Assembly (NCBI RefSeq): GCF_963921235.1
Contig: NC_086097.1
Span: 150,538,001-150,602,000 of the forward strand
Direction of reading: 5' to 3'
From: Mobula hypostoma
Taxonomy: Eukaryota
Length of the DNA stretch: 64,000 bases
Shown here one piece after another: positions 2,791 through 42,221 of this stretch; position 1 is the stretch's first letter; the number at the start of each line of letters is the position of its first letter. The notes beneath the pieces are model-generated. The model was not told the origin of the DNA. It was given only the letters and a program-made list of their open reading frames with translations, and ran no database searches. The translations under genes and the position numbers were made by a program.

Positions 2791-5577
2791 CTGCAGATAG
2801 ATGTTGAAAAGGTTTAAATCAGAGTGACTTTATAACTTGTGCATCAATAGTTGCTGTTAAAATGAAAGTGTGAGACCATGAGCAGGTATGTAGAAAAATG
2901 GGAGATTCGCTGGTTGAAGGATTACAGAGTAATGATGATAAGTACACACTCTTATTTACATTTCAAACAGCAGGAATCAAGAAAATCTATATCATCAGAG
3001 GAAATTATCAAATTGAGAGTTGGAGGTGTATTTTACATTAACATATTACACTGTACATGGAACGTGTTGGAAAATATATTTAAAATTAAGCACATCAGAA
3101 AGATCATGTGCACTCTACAAAAATAAATTCGTCCTTGGATTGACAGCAAATAAATGAGCAATTTGTGCATTGTATTCAACGTTCTAATGGTGGTTTCAGT
3201 GCTTTTGCTTCAATAACAAGTTTCTTTTCCTTTCAAGGATATTGGACTTTAAATTAAAATATTATCAGAATTCTTGATTGGAGTCAACATTGTAACACCA
3301 AGGATATAGAAATTCAAATGTCGACTATTATTCTTGCACTTCATTGCCAGGTATTCCCTTGGTCTTGGTGATGGTGAAAGTGTGGATGGGATTACTAGCT
3401 GTGGGGAAGTGTGATCAACTGGCAAGACACAGGACAAAACATCTGTGTGTGGGTCAGGGGAGAATGGAGAGAATTGTTGGGAAACATTGGTTACATCACC
3501 TGAATGAGTGAAATACCATCACAGTCACTTCTGTCAATAGCCAACTGTGGAAAATCAACAGCCCTTAATTTCTTTTAATATGAGATCTAACCACACCCTT
3601 CCTTAGAGTATTGAATACAACACCAATAACAAGCCCTCCACTTGCTTATCCGATTTAAAAAAGTCAGAGCTAATATTTACCTTGTATATATTTCAAAGCT
3701 ATCCTGATATATCTTGATCATCTTTACATTCAAAAATATCTCTGTCTCAATGACTTGCACATTTCTGTGGTTGACAATTCCAAAAAATTCAAAACCGAGA
3801 AATGAAATTTATTTTCATCTCTATTGCATAAGGCTGAATTATTCTCTCTTTCCTTAATTCTAAATTTTTTCATAGAGAAACAGCATTTTGGCATCTGTCC
3901 TGCCAACTTTTCAAAGAATCTTGTATTCATTTTTTTTGCCAGATCAGTTCATATTCTTCAGAATTTACATTCTTCCAATCATAAAAATTAACATCATGAT
4001 CATGGAAAATATTGACCATTTTGGGAGCCATCTTTTGCAAACATTGTGTTAGCTCCATCATTCATGGCTAATTCTACTGTAGCGTTAATTTGATGTTCTT
4101 CCAAATTCCAGTAACCTTTTTGTTCTTTCTTCTTATTAAAGATCTATCTATGTGTGCCTTAACAATACAGAAACACACTGCTTCCAAAAACCTTTCAGGA
4201 AGAGCGCTCTGTAGATACACAATGTAATGAGAGAGAGAAAAAAAACTGCACATTTCGGCATCAACTGGACAAATTGTTACTCTAGTTGTAGGTTATTCCA
4301 CAAAAGATACATCACCTTTATATCCCCTCAAAAAATTGTATATTCCAAAGTCATATTTAAAGGGAAAATTTTACCTCCTCTCTGTTTAACTAGGTGATAC
4401 CTCATTTTAAAGAAGTGACCGCTAGCATTTTACTTCAATGTAAAAAGTAAGTTTGCCAAACCTGCCTCACTGATTTAATAGGAACATAGAAATTCTGCAG
4501 TCCCTTGCATCTGTTCTAAAAATGAATCATATCTGAGCTGTAGTGTAACTTCACCTGCCAAGTTTGAATAATGCTACTTCACAAATATTTTTCAGTCTTG
4601 AGTTTAAAGGTATCTGTCATTAAAACAAGATGTCTACATTAATTCAAGAAACAAACTGCAAGTTTTGTACAGTGCATTGACCATACCATCTGTATATTTG
4701 GAAGTTCCACCCTTTAGTCCTTGCTAACATATTTGGTCAAAAACCCTATACTCCTTTAAATGACTTCCACTGCTCTATGCCTAATTGCCATGGAAAACTT
4801 ACATGAATGACTACAACAGCACTCAGTGAAGCCAAAGGTTGATTTGGTGGCTGAGGAAATAATTTCTCTATTCGCAGTGCATTATATTAGCAACACATGT
4901 CACCCAAAAATGAGGGCATTTGCTGATGCTATTTTATGGGATCTCTGATACACATGACATCTTACACATAAAAGGACAAAAGTAGCAGGCTCAAAGAAAT
5001 GCTACCACCATGAGTTGACTCCAAGTTGCACCATTCTGCTGTATTTTCTGACTAGGGTATACAATATCTTGTTGATTGCTGGGCTTAAACACTGGAACTG
5101 TATCATTACTGTGGGATTATCATCACTATTGCAACATTTTAAATAGGTGATTCATCTTTGGAGGGCTCTCTAGAAAAGACCAATAAACTTAGGCTGCCAA
5201 GCACACACCACATACTGTAGTCACTTAGTGGAGGATTTCCCACCAGGAGAAGAGTTAATCAAGTGCTTCACAGGAGTTGATCACTTTACTTTATTCATTC
5301 ATCAAAAAATATATTAGCATGGGATGACTTCTTGGATGAATACTGTCCAAATCCACAAGTTCCTGGAACGCCTGTAACATTATGTTCCGGTGGGAATTCT
5401 ATAGTGATGAAGCTTAGGTTTTCTCTCGATAATTTGAATTTAAATTCCATTTTTTTCTTCTCAACACCTAGAGCAGTTATTTACGTCCATCAAAGCACTC
5501 GAGTTCCTAAAAACAAATATGATACTCCAACCAACTGTATCTGATTCCATGGGTTTATTCAAGATCAACAAAGTATA

Positions 5578-5753
5578 TCACACAAAATGCTGGAGGAACT
5601 CAGCAGGTCAGGCAGCATCTATAGAAAAGAGAAGGGCCTCAGGCTGAAGTGTCGACTATACTCTTTTTAATAGATGCTGCCTGGCTTGCTGAGTTCCTCC
5701 AGCATTTTGTGTGTTGCTTGGATTTTCAGCATCTGCAGATTTTCTCTTGTTTG
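5578..5753. mobile_element. Short palindromic Penelope-derived element with 13-bp TSD
   Basis: Arms 5579-~5631 and ~5661-5713 are near reverse complements and resemble the termini of the Penelope element at 38382-40813. TCAACAAAGTATA at 5565-5577 and 5754-5766. Confidence 0.85.
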
Positions 5754-6643
5754 TCAACAAAGTATACGCCTTCTTTACTAAAAGATTCTCATTTATGGAC
5801 TTAACGTTGGAAATGATGAATAGAAACTTCCACTCCATGAACAAGCTTAGCTAGTCATAGAGATATTGAGACATGAAGCATAGAAACTGGATCTTTGACC
5901 TTTCCAAGTTGTTTCTGATCCTCAGGTACTTTGTCTGTATGAGAGTACTTGCCTCCATGATCCACTCAGACAATGTCTTCCAAATGCACTTTCAGTGAAA
6001 TAAATTCTTGCTAAGATCACTTCTAAAGTTCTTATAATCTTACCCTAGATCTAGGGCTGACTTTAGAGTCCTCTACTATGAAAAAAGCTTTCTACTATGT
6101 ATCCTATCAATGCCATTCATAATTTTGTGATCTTCACTACCCCCTCATCAGACCCTGTAAAACTAAACCAGCCTACCCTGTTTCTCTGAACAATTTAAAC
6201 ATACCAACTCAGAAAACATACATTTTCCATACATCCTTGCCACTTCAATTATATCCTTCCCACAGTGTGGCTACTAGAACCTTACACAATAGTCAAGCGT
6301 AGCCGAATCAACATTTTCTATAGGTGTACTATGATTGCCACGCCCTTACATTTGAAGCCCCAGTACTGAAGGCAAGTATCCTCACTACATTTGCTGTTTG
6401 TGTAGCTGCCTTTGGGGATCTTTGTCAATATATGCAATACAGCCATTTTGTACTTGATTTTTTTTTTAGCACTAAGTAGGGTAGGACATGTAATAGGAAT
6501 TTTAGCACTAAATACCTATTCTTCATGTACACATTGTGTTACTTAACTTTCATGCTTGGCAAATATTCAGTAACTTACTTCAATTTTAGGAACAACCTTA
6601 TCTTTCACTCAGTGACAAGATAGAATAGGCTGTAATAACTCAC

Positions 6644-23481: not shown

Positions 23482-23596
23482 CTACAGAGATGCTGGAAAT
23501 CTTGAGCACACATACAAAATGCTGGAGGAACACAGCAAATCAGGCAGCATCTATGGAGGGGATAAACAGCCAGTGTTTCAGGCTGAGAGTCCTTGA
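23482..23596 (-). mobile_element. Penelope terminal fragment
   Basis: GATGCTGGAAATC..CAAAATGCTGGAGGAACACAGC..CAGGCAGCATCTATGG, similar to 38395-38500 and 5579-5630. Confidence 0.7.
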
Positions 23597-24815: not shown

Positions 24816-26248
24816 CAGACATCCCACCTCTCCCGGGAGTTCCGGGAATCTCCTGCATATCCATAGTGGCTCCTTGAAGCCCGAAAATTATATACAATAT
24901 CCCGGAAATTGATTTTTTAGAGAGGGAGAGGGAAAAAAAAGAAAGAAAATGAATGAATCCTGCTTGGTCTCTCTTTGTGCTAAGTAGACCTATCCGTTTT
25001 CACTGTGGGCGGGCTTTACAGTCGTCCTCTCTCTCTCTTCCATATTCCATCAGTTCAGTTACTGCCTTCTGTAATGACGCTGAAATGATCCGAACAACTG
25101 TCGGTGATGAAGTACAAAAGTCTGGTGAAGAAATTCCCAAAGCTGGCGGAGACAACCTGACTACGCGAGGCTGTCCTATGCGGGCGGGGCACAGTGGCGT
25201 CTTAAAGCGGATTACAGCGGGGTTTAAATTGGAGTGAAATTCCAAAATCGTCTGCTAAGATATCTTTATAAATGCACTCACAGCAAGCAAATTCTTCGGG
25301 GTTTTTTTCCTGAAACATTTCCACTTACAGGTACATTAAAGCTCGTGATGGGCTGGGTTTAAGCGCAGCCGTTTTCAGAAGAAAAACCGATTTTAATAAA
25401 TACCCGGCCCCCACCGAGGTCTCATCATTAGGACAGCAAACTGTTTACCTGTGCTGCGCACTTTATATGTATTTTGAATTACATTTTATTAAATAATACG
25501 GTAATATATCGTTTTATGTGGTGTGCATGATATATGTATTGTGGCTACACCGTGGTCCGGACAGAGGATGTTTCACTTGTGGACAATCAGCCAGATGACA
25601 ATAAACTTGAACTTGACGATACAGAACTTCTAAATCACTCATTTAAAATCCCCCATTTCGGTGTAAAAAAGTAAGTTCTGATCCTGACTATTGCAGGCAA
25701 CGCGTGTGTGCGTGTGCGTGTGCGTGTGAGAGAGAGAGACACACACACACTACGGATGTATATGCGATTCGAATGGACATTAAGCAGCACACACCTGTAA
25801 TAACGATACACCTTATGCTTTTATTTCTTTTAGGAACCACAACATATCAGGGAGGCTAAGCACAGGGAAGGCTGCTCAAGTATTTCACAGTTCTTTTCAG
25901 CAGAAAACCAAAGTCTGACAGAGAAGGTCACTATAGCTGAGGTGTACTTTATATCTTTCATAGTTGAGCATAACCTGCCATTCCAGGTGTGTAAGCACAC
26001 AGGCAAGCTATTCAGGAAAATGTTTCCTGATTCAGAAATAGCAAAAAACTATGCCTGCTCATTTACCAAGACAGCAGCTATTGTGAACAAGGCACATTAA
26101 GACAGAATTCAGAAGTCAGCGGTCTCACAAAACACTTGTGAATCTGATGCCTTGCAAGATTAACAAATTCATTGACACAGACAGCTATGAGGTTGAGACT
26201 TCCGGTTGAGACCTCCCTGAAATGAGTTTTTGCAGGGTGGGATGTCTG
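24816..26248 (+). mobile_element. Internally deleted hAT-superfamily DNA transposon with 6-bp TSD
   Basis: 13-bp perfect TIR CAGACATCCCACC; CACCCC at 24810-24815 and 26249-26254; transposase remnant EKVTIAEVYFISFIVEHNLPFQVCKHTGKLFRKMFPDSEIAKNYACSFTKTAAIV at ~25920-26085. Confidence 0.85.
25703..25750. repeat. Compound microsatellite (GTGTGC)n(GA)n(CA)n
   Basis: Read directly. Confidence 0.9.
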
Positions 26249-27209
26249 CACCCCCTTTGGCAAGTATCACAGCTTGTAAACACTTTCTGTAGCCAGCTAA
26301 GAGTCTTTCAATTCTTGTTTGGGGGAATTTCATCCATTCTTCCTTGCAAAAGGCTTCTAGTTCTGTGAGGTTCTTGGGCCATCTTGCATGCACTGCTCTT
26401 TTGAGGACTATCCACAGATTTTTAATAATGTTTAGCTCAGGGGACTGTGAGGGCCATGGCAAAACCTTCAGCTTGCACCTCTTGAGGTAGTCCATTGTGG
26501 ATTTTGAGGCGTGTTTAGGATCATTATCCTGTTGTAGAAGCCATCCTCTTTTCATATTTGGCTTTTTCCCAGATGGTGTGATGTTTGCTTCCAGAATTTG
26601 CTGGTATTTAATTGAATTCATTCTTCCCTCTACCAGTGAAATGTTCCCCGTGCCACTGGCTGCAACACAAGCCCAAAGCATGATTGATCCAACCCTGTGC
26701 TTAAAAGTTGGAGAGGTGTTCTTTTCATGAAATTCTGCACCCTTTTTTCTCCAAACATACCTTTCCTCATTGCGGCCAAAAAGTTCTATTTTAACTTCAT
26801 CGGTCCACAGGACTTGTTTCCAAAATGCATCAGGCTTGTCTAGATGTTCCTTTGCAAATTTCTGAAGCTGAATTTTGTGGTGAGGACACAGGAAAGGTTT
26901 TCTTCTGATGACTCTTCCATGAAGGGCATATTTGTGTGGGTGTCACTGCACAGTAGAACAGTGCACCACCACTCCAGAGTCTGCTAAATCTTCCTGAAGG
27001 TCTTTTGCAGTCAAACGGGGGTTTTGATTTGCCTTTCTAGCAATCCTAAGAGCAGTTCTCTCGGAATGTTTCCTTGGTCTTCCAGACCTCAACTTGACCT
27101 CCACCGTTCCTGTTAACTGCCATTTCTTAATTACATTACGAATGGAGGAAACAGCTACCTGAAAATGCTTTGCCTTTTCTTACAGCCTTTTCCTACTTTG
27201 TGGGCATCA

Positions 27210-32512: not shown

Positions 32513-33058
32513 GCTGGTGGCCACACACTTTAATGCCACATCCCATTCCCATTCTGACATGTCTATCCACGGCCTCCTCTACTGTAAAGATGAAGCCACA
32601 CTCAGGTTGGAGGAACCACACCTTATATTCCATCATGCCTCCAACCTGATGGCATGAACATTGACTTCTCTAACTTCTGCTAATGCCCCACCTCCCCCTC
32701 GTAACCCATCCTTTATTTATATACACACATACTTTCTCTCACTCTCCTTTTTCTCCCTCTGTCCCCCTGACTATACCCCTTGCCCATCCTCTGGGCTTCC
32801 CCCCCCCTTTCCCTTCTCCCTGGGCCTCCTGTCCCATGATCCTCTCATATCCCTTTTGCCTATCACCTGTCCAGCTCTTGGCTCCATCCCTCCCCCTCCT
32901 GTCTTCTCCTATCATTTTGGATCTCCCCCTCCCCCCCTACTTCAAATTTACTAGCTCTTCCTTCAGTTAGCCCTGACGAAGGGTCTCGGCCTGAAACATT
33001 GACTGTACCTCTTCCTAGAGATGCTGCCTGGCCTGCTGCGTTCACCAGCAACTTTGAT
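32513..33058 (+). mobile_element. Penelope-like element 3' fragment (GIY-YIG C-terminus and terminal region)
   Basis: VATHFNATSHSHSDMSIHGLLYCKDEATLRLEE; highly similar to 40248-40808. Confidence 0.9.
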
Positions 33059-33059
33059 G

Positions 33060-37291: not shown

Positions 37292-37392
37292 TGCAACACA
37301 AACAAAATGCTGGAGAAACTCATCAGGCCAGGCAGCATCTATGGAAAAAAGTACAGTCGACGTATCGGTCCAAGACCATTCGGCAGGACTAG
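37292..37392 (-). mobile_element. Penelope terminal fragment inside the ERV
   Basis: CAAAATGCTGGAGAAACTCATCAGGCCAGGCAGCATCTATGG...AGTCGACG...CAGGACTAG. Confidence 0.75.
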
Positions 37393-37444
37393 CTCCTTAA
37401 AGTTTGCCTTTCCTGGAACGGATTTCTTTTTGTCCAGGAAGGCC

Positions 37445-38075: not shown

Positions 38076-38480
38076 GAAAGCCATTTTGTGGTGTAACTCA
38101 CATTTAATTGCTCTAGGTTTTCTTGGCAGTGCAATCAATACTGACTTGCTCTTTTCTTCAGGTATTTCCCCACGAGAAAATCTGTCTCCCTTGCAATCCC
38201 AAAATCTTCCAGAGCTTGAATCATTTCTATAGCAATGACGACAGGCCCTACTGCCTTATTCTTTTTCATTTTTCCCACTGCTGCTCCAACTTCTGATTTC
38301 ATAATCGGTGGGCCATCCATGTTCTTAGTAATTATTGGCTTCTCCCCGCTCGTATCTTCAAACTAGTCAGCTATGTATTCACAAACAACAGGAATTCTGC
38401 AGATGCTGGAAATTCAAGCAACATACATCAAAGTTGCTGGTGAACGCAGCAGGCCAAGCAGCATCTATAGGAAGAGGCGC

Positions 38481-38516
38481 AGTCGACGTTTCAGGCCGCG
38501 ACTCTTCGTCAGGACT
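38481..38516 (-). ncRNA. Minimal hammerhead ribozyme motif in the inverted arm (ZFAT sense strand)
   Basis: Reverse complement reads AGTC-CTGACGA-AGAGTCGCGGCCT-GAAAC-GTC-GACT; core intact, stem II weakened. Confidence 0.7.
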
Positions 38517-39486
38517 AACTGAAGGAAGAGTGAGTAAGGGATTTGAAAGCTGGAGGGGGAGGGGGAGATGCAAAATGATAGGAGAAGACAGGAGGGGGAG
38601 GGATAGAGCCGAGAGCTGGACAGCTGATAGGCAAAAGGGGATATGAGAGGATCATGGGACAGGAGGTCCGGGAAGAAAGACAAGAGGGGGGGTGACCCAG
38701 AGGATGGGCAAGAGGTATATTCAGAGTGACAGAGGGAGAAAAAGGAGAGTGAGAGAAAGAATGTGTGCATAAAAATGAGTAACAGATGGGGTACGAGGGG
38801 GAGGTGGGGCCTTAGCGGAAGTTAGAGAAGTCGATGTTCATGCCATCAGGTTGGAGGCTACCCAGACGGAATATAAGGTGTTGTTCCTCCAACCTGAGTG
38901 TGGCTTCATCTTTACAGTAGAGGAGGCCGTGGATAGACATGTCAGAATGGGAATGGGATGTGGAATTAAAATGTGTGGCCACTGGGAGATCCTGCTTTCT
39001 CTGGCGGACAGAGCGTAGATGTTCAGCAAAGCGGTCTCCCAGTCTGCGTTGGGTCTCACCAATATATAAAAGGTCACATCGGGAGCACCGGACGCAGTAT
39101 ATCACCCCAGTCGACTCACAGGTGAAGTGATGCCTCACCTGGAAGGACTGTTTGGGGCCCTGAATGGTGGTAAGGGAGGAAGTGTAAGGGCATGTGTAGC
39201 ACTTGTTCCACTTACACGGATAAGTGCCAGGAGGGAGATCAGTGGGGAGGGATGGGGGGAACGAATGGACAAGGGAGTTGAGTAGGGAGCGATCCCTGCG
39301 GAATGCAGAGAAAGGGGGGGAGGGAAAGATGTGCTTAGTGGTGGGATCCCGTTGGAGGTGGCGGAAGTTACGGAGAATAATATGTTGGACCCGGAGGCTG
39401 GTGGGGTGGTAGGTGAAGACCAGGGGAACCCTATTCCTAGTGGGGTGGTGGGAGGATGGAGTGAGAGCAGATGTACGTGAAATGGG

Positions 39487-39577
39487 GGACTATTCCTCTT
39501 CTCCTGACTCTCACAGCTATCTGGACTATTCCTCTTCTCACTGACTCTCACAGCTATCTGGACTATTCCTCTTCTCA
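39487..39577. repeat. About 2.5 tandem copies of a 36-37-bp unit at the Penelope inversion junction
   Basis: CTGACTCTCACAGCTATCTGGACTATTCCTCTTCTCA repeated. Confidence 0.9.
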
Positions 39578-40717
39578 CCCTGTCTCTTGCAAAAACGCCA
39601 TCCCCTTCTCGCAATTCCTCCGTCTCTGCCGCATCTGCTCTCAGGATGAGGCTTTTCATTCTAGGACGAGGGAGATGTCTTCATTTTTTAAAGAAAGGGG
39701 CTTCCCTTCCTCCACTATCAACTCTGCTCTTGAACGCATCTCCCCCGTTTCACGTACATCTGCTCTCACTCCATCCTCCCACCACCCCACTAGGAATAGG
39801 ATTCCCCTGGTCCTCACCTACCACCCCATCAGCCTCCGGGTCCAACATATTATTCTCCGTAACTTCCGCCACCTCCAATGGGATCCCACCACGAAGCACA
39901 TCTTTCCCTCCCCCACTCTCTCTGCATTCCACAGGGATCGCTCCCTACACAACTCCCTTGTCCATTCGTCCCCCCCATCCCTCCCCCACTGATCTTCCTC
40001 CTGGCACTTATCCGTGTAAGCGGAACAAGTGCTACACATGCCCTTACACTTCCTCCCTTACCACCATTCAGGGCCCCAAACAGTCCTTCCAGGTGAGGCA
40101 TCACTTCACCTGTGAGTCGACTGGGGTGATATACTGCGTCCAGTGCTCCCGATGTGGCCTTTTATATATTGGTGAGACCCGACGCAGACTGGGAGACCGC
40201 TTTGCTGAACATCTACGCTCTGTCCGCCAGAGAAAGCAGGATCTCCCAGTGGCCACACATTTTAATTCCACATCCCATTCCCATTCTGACATGTCTATCC
40301 ACGGCCTCCTCTACTGTAAAGATGAAGCCACACTCAGGTTGGAGGAACAACACCTTATATTCCGTCTGGGTAGCCTCCAACCTGATGGCATGAACATCGA
40401 CTTCTCTAACTTCCGCTAAGGCCCCACCTCCCCCTCGTACCCCATCTGTTACTCATTTTTATGCACACATTCTTTCTCTCACTCTCCTTTTTCTCCCTCT
40501 GTCCCTCTGAATATACCTCTTGCCCATCCTCTGGGTCACCCCCCCCCGCCCCGTCTTTCTTCCCGGACCTCCTGTCCCATGATCCTCTCGTATCCCCTTT
40601 TGCCTATCACCTGTCCAGTTCTCGGCTCTATCCCTCCCCCTCCTGTCTTCTCCTATCATTTTGCATCTCCCCCTCCCCCTCCAGCTTTCAAATCCCTTAC
40701 TCACTCTTCCTTCAGTT

Positions 40718-40753
40718 AGTCCTGACGAAGGGTCTCGGCCTGAAACGTCGACT
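40718..40753 (+). ncRNA. Minimal type I hammerhead ribozyme motif in the Penelope terminus
   Basis: AGTC-CTGACGA-AGGGTCTCGGCCT-GAAAC-GTC-GACT: stem I AGTC/GACT, CUGANGA and GAAA cores, stem II AGG/CCT, loopless palindromic helix III (ACGT), GUC cleavage triplet. Confidence 0.8.
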
Positions 40754-42221
40754 GCGCCTCTTCCTATAGATGCTACTTGGCCTGCTGCGTTCACCAGCAA
40801 CTTTGATGTATGTAGCTATGTATTCAGACCGTCTCACCAGTATATCTGCTTTTTCAATGAGTATTGATCCACCTTTTGCCTTCAAACACCCACTAGATGT
40901 ACAAGAATTATCACCTATGATGTCCTCACCTTCGTGTGCATATCACCAGAATTTTTCAGTTTCTCAATTGCTTCACATTCGCCATTTATCAATTGTTCTT
41001 TTGCTTCCCTACATTATCGCTTGATTTCTTTGTTCAAGGTCCTATATTTGTTGCTATTCTTTGGCATGACTTTCTGTCTTTCTTTCCCTAGATCCAGAAT
41101 TTCACCTGTCATCTATTTCTTCTTCTTCTTCTTCTCTTTTTCAGTATCACTTTATTAGACACATCCACTATTGCCTTTTTAAACTTCAACCAGCTTGGTG
41201 TGTTCTCCACTGTCAGAGCTTCAAATCTCTTCATCACTGCTACAGAGTTTTTCACCTTCATGTCCCAATCTTTCAAGCAAGTCATTGTTAGACTTTATTT
41301 AACCATCTATGCTTAACGTTCAGCTTGCATATCACTGGAACATGGTCACTCTCACAGTCCGGTCCTGGCTATGCTTTGGACTGTTGCATGGCACTCCTGA
41401 AACACTGGCTGATTGTGACATAGTCTATTTGATTATGGTTCTGATCTTCTGGGCTTCTCCAAGTCCACAAACTTCTTATGTGTTGCTTGCACCATGTGAT
41501 TGTTATTATCTAATCATCTGCACGACACCAGACTATGAATCTCTCACCTCTGTCATTCCTGGTTCCCAATCGAAATGCTCCGACAATATTACCGCCTCAA
41601 TGTTGTCCAACTTTAGCATTCATATCCCCTATCACCATAACGATATCTTGTGATTTACAGTGGCCCTCTGCTTCTTGCAAGGTATCATATGAACTTTCTA
41701 TATCCTGTTCACTACTATTGGCTATTGGAGGACATGCTATTATTATTGAAATATTCATAGTCTGCCCTCGGAGTTTCACCAGGGGTCTTCTGTCCAATAT
41801 CCTATAAGGCTTTTGCTTCTTTCAGCACAGTTTGTTCATGTTTATCACCACCCAAACAGATCAGTTTGTATTCATCAGAATCAAAACATCCAGTCCCTTT
41901 CCATCTTTTCTCACAGTCCCAAGATGTTGATGTTCAAATGACCCCTTTCTTGCATCACATTCTCTAGCTTTCCATCTTGATAAAGAGTTTTCAAGTTTCG
42001 CATTGCTGTTTTGATCGTATCTTTGTTGTGGGGAGTGGCCCGATGACGATTGAGTCTGACGTATTGTATGTGAGTGCTTCTACCTAGTGAGGGGTCGTAG
42101 CCTGTGGGGAAGATCCTCTTCACTGTTGTTCTTCTTTTCTTTATCCAGGACCATGATTGTCCTCGGCAAATTTTTCTACGGAGGTGGTTTACCATTGCCA
42201 TCTTCTGGGCAGTGACTTTAC

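Follow-up and report, generated by a model that had tools for sequence, protein, structure and literature searches.

An intron of ZFAT in the ray Mobula hypostoma holds an inverted Penelope-like element (PLE) with a minimal hammerhead ribozyme (min-HHR) motif on each strand, which raises the question of whether the copy carried by the ZFAT pre-mRNA can act as a ribozyme or is a by-product of transposition. The original prediction, made from a window of 64,000 nucleotides (the whole stretch of DNA analyzed here), allowed for cleavage in trans with transcripts of other family copies or for masking of the motif by a long fold-back duplex. Our analysis points to a passive fate. One PLE insertion, made up of two 5'-truncated copies, very probably left two inert motifs in the ZFAT intron as a relic. 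The plus-strand motif is a PLE minimal hammerhead motif, and the ZFAT-strand one a damaged and likely masked copy.

Structure of the insertion

The sequence from 38382 to 40813 is one head-to-head, 5'-truncated PLE insertion lying between exact 13-bp direct repeats (Table 1). Over 1073 nt its arms differ by 26 substitutions and 6 gap columns (97.2% identity), two of the gap columns being an end artefact. Neither arm is nested in the other: the left one has an additional 39 nt at its 3' end, and the right one about 200 nt more at its 5' end. A 225-aa open frame with the GIY-YIG domain spans 38812-39489 in the left arm; the right copy is frameshifted by one base near 39983. Where the strand switches, three nucleotides (GGA) are common to both sides, and the 37-nt unit repeated there matches PLE coding sequence; the junction was likely formed by slippage of the reverse transcriptase (RT) and joining at microhomology. 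Capture of host DNA at the center of the insert was ruled out, as the junction sequence is element-derived.

Table 1. Coordinates of the insertion, its motifs and the host intron within the window (TSD, target-site duplication)
Feature	Position	Strand	Remark
Left TSD, 13 bp	38369-38381	+	Exact 13-mer, found only here and at 40814-40826
39-nt Penelope tail	38382-38420	-	Left arm only
Left arm, 5'-truncated PLE copy (linker, GIY-YIG, 3' repeat)	38382-39489	-	Sense to ZFAT pre-mRNA
Min-HHR motif, ZFAT-sense	38481-38516	-	Core intact, stem II broken; predicted cut after 38485
Junction, element-derived	39490-39540	+	About 1.4 extra copies of the 37-nt unit
Right copy, 5'-truncated PLE	39541-40813	+	No tail; about 200 nt longer at the 5' side than the left arm
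Min-HHR motif, family type	40718-40753	+	Antisense to ZFAT; predicted cut after 40749
Right TSD, 13 bp	40814-40826	+	Exact 13-mer pair
ZFAT intron hosting the insertion, 24,241 nt	48452 (donor) to 24212 (acceptor)	-	tblastn of P0001 and splice-site reading

The left boundary is also visible in sequencing contigs. Family depth climbs from hundreds to millions across the tail edge (38364-38399), and loose contig ends cluster at 38378-38383 in all four runs compared. Outside the insert, the flanks form one coding-like frame when read across a single copy of the TSD (1 stop, compared with 10 in each other frame), and low-copy repeat contigs stop matching at 38381 (6 of the 17 flank pieces listed), which together indicate that the target was itself an older repeat. 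We take the interrupted remnant (38180-38381 and 40814-40933, minus strand) to be LINE-like, judging by a protein motif.

Inverted truncated copies with a one-sided tail are called typical of PLE insertions in the accounts that we drew on (PMC8557442, PMC3846280). The present case agrees with these accounts of EN+ PLE insertion in its head-to-head arms, its tail at one end only (39 nt, compared with 30-40 bp), its TSD, its microhomology junction and its choice of an older LINE-like repeat as target. It differs in that the truncation of both copies lies downstream of the RT core, which leaves no full ORF, and in the length of the TSD, which is 13 bp here and 8-10 bp in the rotifer examples described.

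A second, tiny head-to-head insert of the same family lies at 5578-5753 between exact 13-bp TSDs (5565-5577 and 5754-5766). Its tail is likewise on one end only, and its arms are truncated within the motif region and contain no full motif. The same layout without full motifs implies that inversion is a property of the insertion and needs no ribozyme pair.

ZFAT was correctly placed on the minus strand: a 444-aa frame (49779-48448) matches P0001 at 100% identity, and P0001 is a ZFAT cluster with 39 members whose representative is labelled Mobula hypostoma. Because ZFAT is transcribed from this strand, the minus-strand motif is the sense copy in its pre-mRNA. Within its intron, the insert is separated from the donor by 7.6 kb and from the acceptor by 14.2 kb; the gene extends past the window.

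Element family and age

The proposed PLE origin is borne out by the C-terminal GIY-YIG domain and its alignment with relatives. PF01541 (GIY-YIG) matched the two arms with 22.5 and 20.8 bits (E 1.4e-4 and 4.9e-4), just below the cut-off of 22.6. Upstream of this domain, both arms have CX4CXXC, which fits the CX2-5CxxC motif of the RT-EN linker that is described as diagnostic for Neptune/Nematis-type PLEs (PMC8557442); by this motif the element would be a Neptune/Nematis-type EN+ PLE. The frame has 14 matches among rays, sharks and a sea urchin, which align with it along its entire length; the alignment, made with 7 of them, takes in both CX4CXXC and the GIY-YIG motif. Weak, below-cut-off matches to RVT_1 occur in three of the six relatives scanned, the RT region being absent from the truncated insert itself. 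The family patterns had no loci in the viral contigs and metagenome contigs scanned. Judged by titles and the opening lines of abstracts, none of five papers retrieved on Penelope in elasmobranch genomes deals with this family, which does not imply absence from print, and the family lists in published supplements could already include this element.

The element ORF is also contained, at 76% and 81% identity, in two annotated ray proteins, P0122 and P0126, whose names make them isoforms of a divergent kinase-domain gene and a chitinase-domain gene of the host, respectively. This could possibly reflect exonisation or an annotation artefact.

To place the insertion within its family, the region 38130-38640 was compared with the contigs of four runs, in which 75,264 (X1), 39,101, 6,446 (X9) and 3,482 contigs matched; X9 is guessed to be an RNA run. 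The contigs carry no information on strand, RNA ends or editing. In X1 the contig depth adds up to about 6 million over the motif, compared with 79-410 over the flank; such sums do not measure copy number, and some differences in X1 are left uncounted. Six minority alleles at which the insert departs from the family majority were checked, and all six are common to both arms, indicating that the arms derive from one source. For three of these shared alleles, the upper bounds on their share of depth are 39%, 44% and 22% in DNA of organism A, compared with 2.7%, 0.8% and 1.8% in organism B. The source lineage of the arms would therefore be a subfamily enriched in organism A, and since the shared alleles mark a subfamily enriched in one species, we infer that the insertion is young. 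An insertion as old as the split of A and B is compatible with one flank contig of organism B that has only 3 differences in 210 letters. Among the contigs listed, none bridges the junction in organism B or C, and the site is seen neither empty nor filled in organism B.

Route of formation

We infer that the structure probably arose by two-ended, target-primed insertion. The element protein would make a 13-nt staggered cut in the old LINE-like remnant, and reverse transcription would be primed from both DNA ends, one cDNA beginning at a tailed start site and the other at an untailed one on RNA of the same source lineage. Both cDNAs would stop early and be joined after slippage at the 3-nt microhomology. 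The hammerhead would serve the parent element, in RNA processing through a tandem or protein-assisted motif, and not ZFAT. A biochemical parallel is available in Poseidon of Anolis carolinensis (PAc; Frangieh et al. 2024, PMC11167929), whose protein is reported to nick both strands and to extend them from two start sites, by which the tail is defined. The present arms similarly have two 3' ends a tail apart, and nicking and extension of both strands in the manner of PAc would give the present structure. In contrast with PAc, the present element has the CX4CXXC linker of Neptune/Nematis type and no start codon at the stem II of its motif.

An inverted structure could also come from self-priming, the fold-back of one cDNA without the use of two DNA ends, an unlikely but not negligible alternative that concerns the route only. 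Self-priming on an antisense template has been proposed from palindromes at inverted junctions (PMC3846280), and the rare alleles common to both arms speak for it. However, neither arm contains the other, which simple copy-back of one arm would not give, and the junction is a direct 37-nt repeat with a 3-nt microhomology and no palindrome. Non-nested arms and a direct-repeat junction make two-ended priming the better fit. With its non-nested arms, single tail, shared rare alleles and 13-bp TSD, the locus is a fossil that fits both-strand priming, which is an open step in PLE transposition.

Anatomy of the hammerhead motifs

The two 36-nt motifs lie where they had been predicted, at 40718-40753 on the plus strand and 38481-38516 on the minus strand, so that each strand of the inverted insert does carry a core-intact motif. 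Both run in the order AGUC, CUGACGA, an extra A, a 12-nt stem-II region, GAAA, CGUC and GACU. The AGUC/GACU helix I, the CUGACGA and GAAA core boxes and the palindrome ACGU (15.2-16.2) that replaces helix III were all found in both as claimed, and C17 falls at 40749 and 38485, with cleavage predicted after each. The full min-HHR core (C3-U4-G5-A6-N7-G8-A9, G12-A13-A14-A15.1 and U16.1-H17) is thus present in both arms, and helix I has 4 bp in each, within the 4-5 bp expected of a type-I min-HHR.

These motifs resemble the min-HHRs of metazoan PLEs described by Cervera and de la Pena (2014, PMC4209133) in their core boxes, 4-bp helix I, extra nucleotide between 9 and 10.1, palindromic 15.2-16.2 without a real helix III, location in terminal repeats and dual occurrence on opposite strands. 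Dual min-HHRs on opposite strands had thus already been published in that paper, where fish PLEs are reported to have the extra base after A9, the palindrome and low activity even in tandem. The present motifs differ from those described there as follows: the 10.1-11.1 pair is G.U (A-U in the other register) in place of the usual G-C, helix II has 4 bp and is broken in the ZFAT-strand copy, and the two motifs are 2.2 kb apart compared with 100-700 bp.

Two of six core matches in the window pass a descriptor that combines the core with a 4-bp helix I and palindromic 15.2/16.2, and each of 200 dinucleotide shuffles gave no match. The looser core-only pattern is weak by itself: it matches 4 times, a number that 4 of 100 shuffles (mean 1.04) also reach. 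The Infernal check that had been proposed was negative, as Rfam hammerhead models gave no match at gathering score over the whole window and none at E<=10 over 38350-40850.

Position 11.1 (38493 and 40741) is U in three of the four full-length motifs in the window and C in the fourth, and so the G10.1-C11.1 pair, a highly conserved min-HHR trait that stands outside the published descriptor, is absent from three of the four. A G.U pair at this place may, we presume, lower activity. U at 11.1 may perhaps be usual for the family in these rays, in which case the closing pair would be G.U or A-U; the position is absent from the 40 of 147 family-variant rows listed.

Loose contig ends also cluster at 38516, the outer edge of helix I, with 169 contigs in X1, 163 in X6 and 9 in X11. 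The notion that they mark a conserved motif beside diverging upstream sequence was dropped, since the loose letters agree at a level of only 0.4 in X1 and X6, which is also what true insertion ends show. This position is probably a preferred point of 5' truncation and not a cut site.

Decay of stem II

The expectation of an equivalent stem II in both arms failed: the minus-strand copy is substituted at 38503 and 38499. In the plus copy, helix II consists of 4 bp (G.U, G-C, G-C and U.G) after the unpaired extra A, with a predicted hairpin energy of -2.3 kcal/mol. The minus copy fails a test for a 3-bp helix II in both registers, each of which contains an A.C mismatch, and its predicted energy is 0 kcal/mol (no stable hairpin). 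All catalytic core bases, the GUC and helix I of this ZFAT-strand copy are intact. At 38499 and 38503, 95.3-99.5% of contig depth in all four runs reads the other letter, which is that of the right arm, and because the family depth carries the right-arm letter, the stem-II changes of the ZFAT-strand copy represent private decay.

Substitutions between the arms number 2 in the 36 motif nucleotides and 24 in the other 1031 (Fisher p 0.22). The motif was not spared from substitution since insertion and there is no purifying signal, in numbers that are small. Across the family, none of 12 variable sites falls inside the motif (P=0.17 by length), as counted from 40 of 147 variant rows. A high-copy ray family of this kind offers the numbers for testing selection on minimal hammerheads.

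Predicted folding on the ZFAT strand

Both motifs are predicted to misfold as monomers, with a probability of the hammerhead fold below 0.001, and the short motifs fold no better than shuffles (z -0.37 and +0.15). These and the following energies come from a nearest-neighbor model that leaves out tertiary contacts, proteins, helicases and co-transcriptional splicing. Weak folding alone is no proof of inactivity, since the PAc hammerhead is protein-assisted; it is also reported to be dispensable for insertion in vitro (PMC11167929).

PLE minimal hammerheads cleave as dimers according to Lunse et al., as cited in a review (PMC6765202). The two motifs of this locus had been called paired, a description for which we found no functional basis, as copies on opposite strands cannot form an active dimer in cis: a single transcript holds one motif and its antisense, not a tandem dimer. 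A cis partner was sought on the ZFAT strand within the window, which has two older, decayed family ends, neither of them core-complete. The end at 37293-37394 (minus strand) has a copy at 37355-37390 that carries C at 11.1 and is altered in its core at positions 6 and 14, and the end at 23488-23580 (minus strand) is without the 5' core box. Nor is the locus a non-LTR retrozyme, which is described as a run of at least two units on one strand, every unit having a complete hammerhead (10.64898/2026.07.22.740005); this identity was ruled out because the copies are inverted and carry PLE coding sequence.

The suggested masking by the long fold-back duplex is, on the other hand, strongly favored by folding. 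The minimum free energy (MFE) of the 2541-nt ZFAT-strand RNA is calculated at -2381 kcal/mol, and in that structure 34 of the 36 motif bases and 1054 of the 1069 left-arm bases pair with the other arm. The ZFAT-strand motif and the antisense of the right arm give a predicted -65.0 kcal/mol. Judging from the coordinates, transcription of the ZFAT strand would produce the antisense arm about 2.2 kb ahead of the motif, so that its complement would already be waiting. The ZFAT-strand motif, whose stem II is mutated and which is predicted to be enclosed by a fold-back duplex of 1.07 kb, is thus likely inactive.

Possible effects on ZFAT

The ZFAT-strand copy could still be a substrate, because its core, GUC and helix I are intact. 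In a double hammerhead the core of the partner cuts the GUC of its mate, and it is therefore conceivable that the ZFAT-strand motif pairs by way of ACGU and helix I with an intact transcript of the family, which would provide core and stem II, and is cut in trans after 38485, perhaps with the help of element protein. Family copies are extremely abundant (75,264 contigs in X1) and occur in the guessed RNA run X9 as well, and the PAc ribozyme is reported to cleave with the help of protein (PMC11167929). Nevertheless, we consider such cleavage highly unlikely. Predicted energies of a double hammerhead in trans are -9.5 kcal/mol for two right motifs, about -5 kcal/mol for left and right, and -0.1 to -0.7 kcal/mol for two left motifs; the heterodimer would thus have to compete with the cis duplex of -65 kcal/mol, whose antisense arm would be made first. 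Moreover, unconstrained motif dimers are predicted to favor an extended, non-catalytic duplex (-27 to -28 kcal/mol), which the two 36-mers form at -26.7 kcal/mol. The published record points the same way, as min-HHR activity is described as low even in tandem constructs (PMC4209133), and the PAc study reports that no RNA-seq reads ending at the PAc cut site were found (PMC11167929). Trans cleavage of host introns, if true, would be the first in vivo effect of PLE hammerheads on host genes.

It might instead be the 1-kb intronic hairpin that is the active feature, as double-stranded RNA edited by ADAR or as a structure that slightly affects processing of the ZFAT intron. Long intronic duplexes undergo editing, and the predicted MFE and near-complete pairing of the left arm given above would supply one. 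However, editing of such a hairpin would be a passive consequence, compatible with a relic and no sign of function, and we regard an active role as very improbable.

One may speculate more broadly about a genome crowded with near-identical min-HHRs, in which active family transcripts or protein-RNA particles of the element would cleave in trans those intronic copies whose GUC and helix I are intact, including copies that have lost a working stem II. This would amount to a genome-wide ribozyme network acting on host pre-mRNAs such as that of ZFAT, in which fold-back insertions would be tolerated since their own antisense arm shields the site. To us this seems scarcely credible.

Domestication of the motif to regulate ZFAT splicing or pre-mRNA turnover, as in the hammerheads of RECK, CTCL and DTNB in amniotes (PMC6155905), has a precedent in these type-I motifs that are likewise intronic and sense to their host gene, and the ZFAT-strand core is intact, but its likelihood is negligible: the amniote motifs are described as canonical in form and conserved across species, whereas the ZFAT copy, lying 7.6 and 14.2 kb from the splice sites, is one member of a vast repeat family and of a species-enriched subfamily, sits inside its own antisense duplex, and shows no canonical type-I fold under purifying selection, with helix II broken by two private changes and substitutions not depleted in the motif (2/36 vs 24/1031).

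On the relic reading, this locus is an ordinary and clean example of a PLE insertion structure and of a motif that are both already in print.

Other repeats in the host intron

A solo family copy of 543 nt lies at 32517-33059 on the plus strand of the same ZFAT intron, antisense to the gene, and is 88.8% identical to the right arm. Its helix I and cut site are broken, no clear TSD was seen around it, and its predicted pairing with the left motif amounts to -56.6 kcal/mol. The intron also contains a 257-aa open frame at 26169-26942 on the minus strand, which we take to resemble a Tc1-type transposase.
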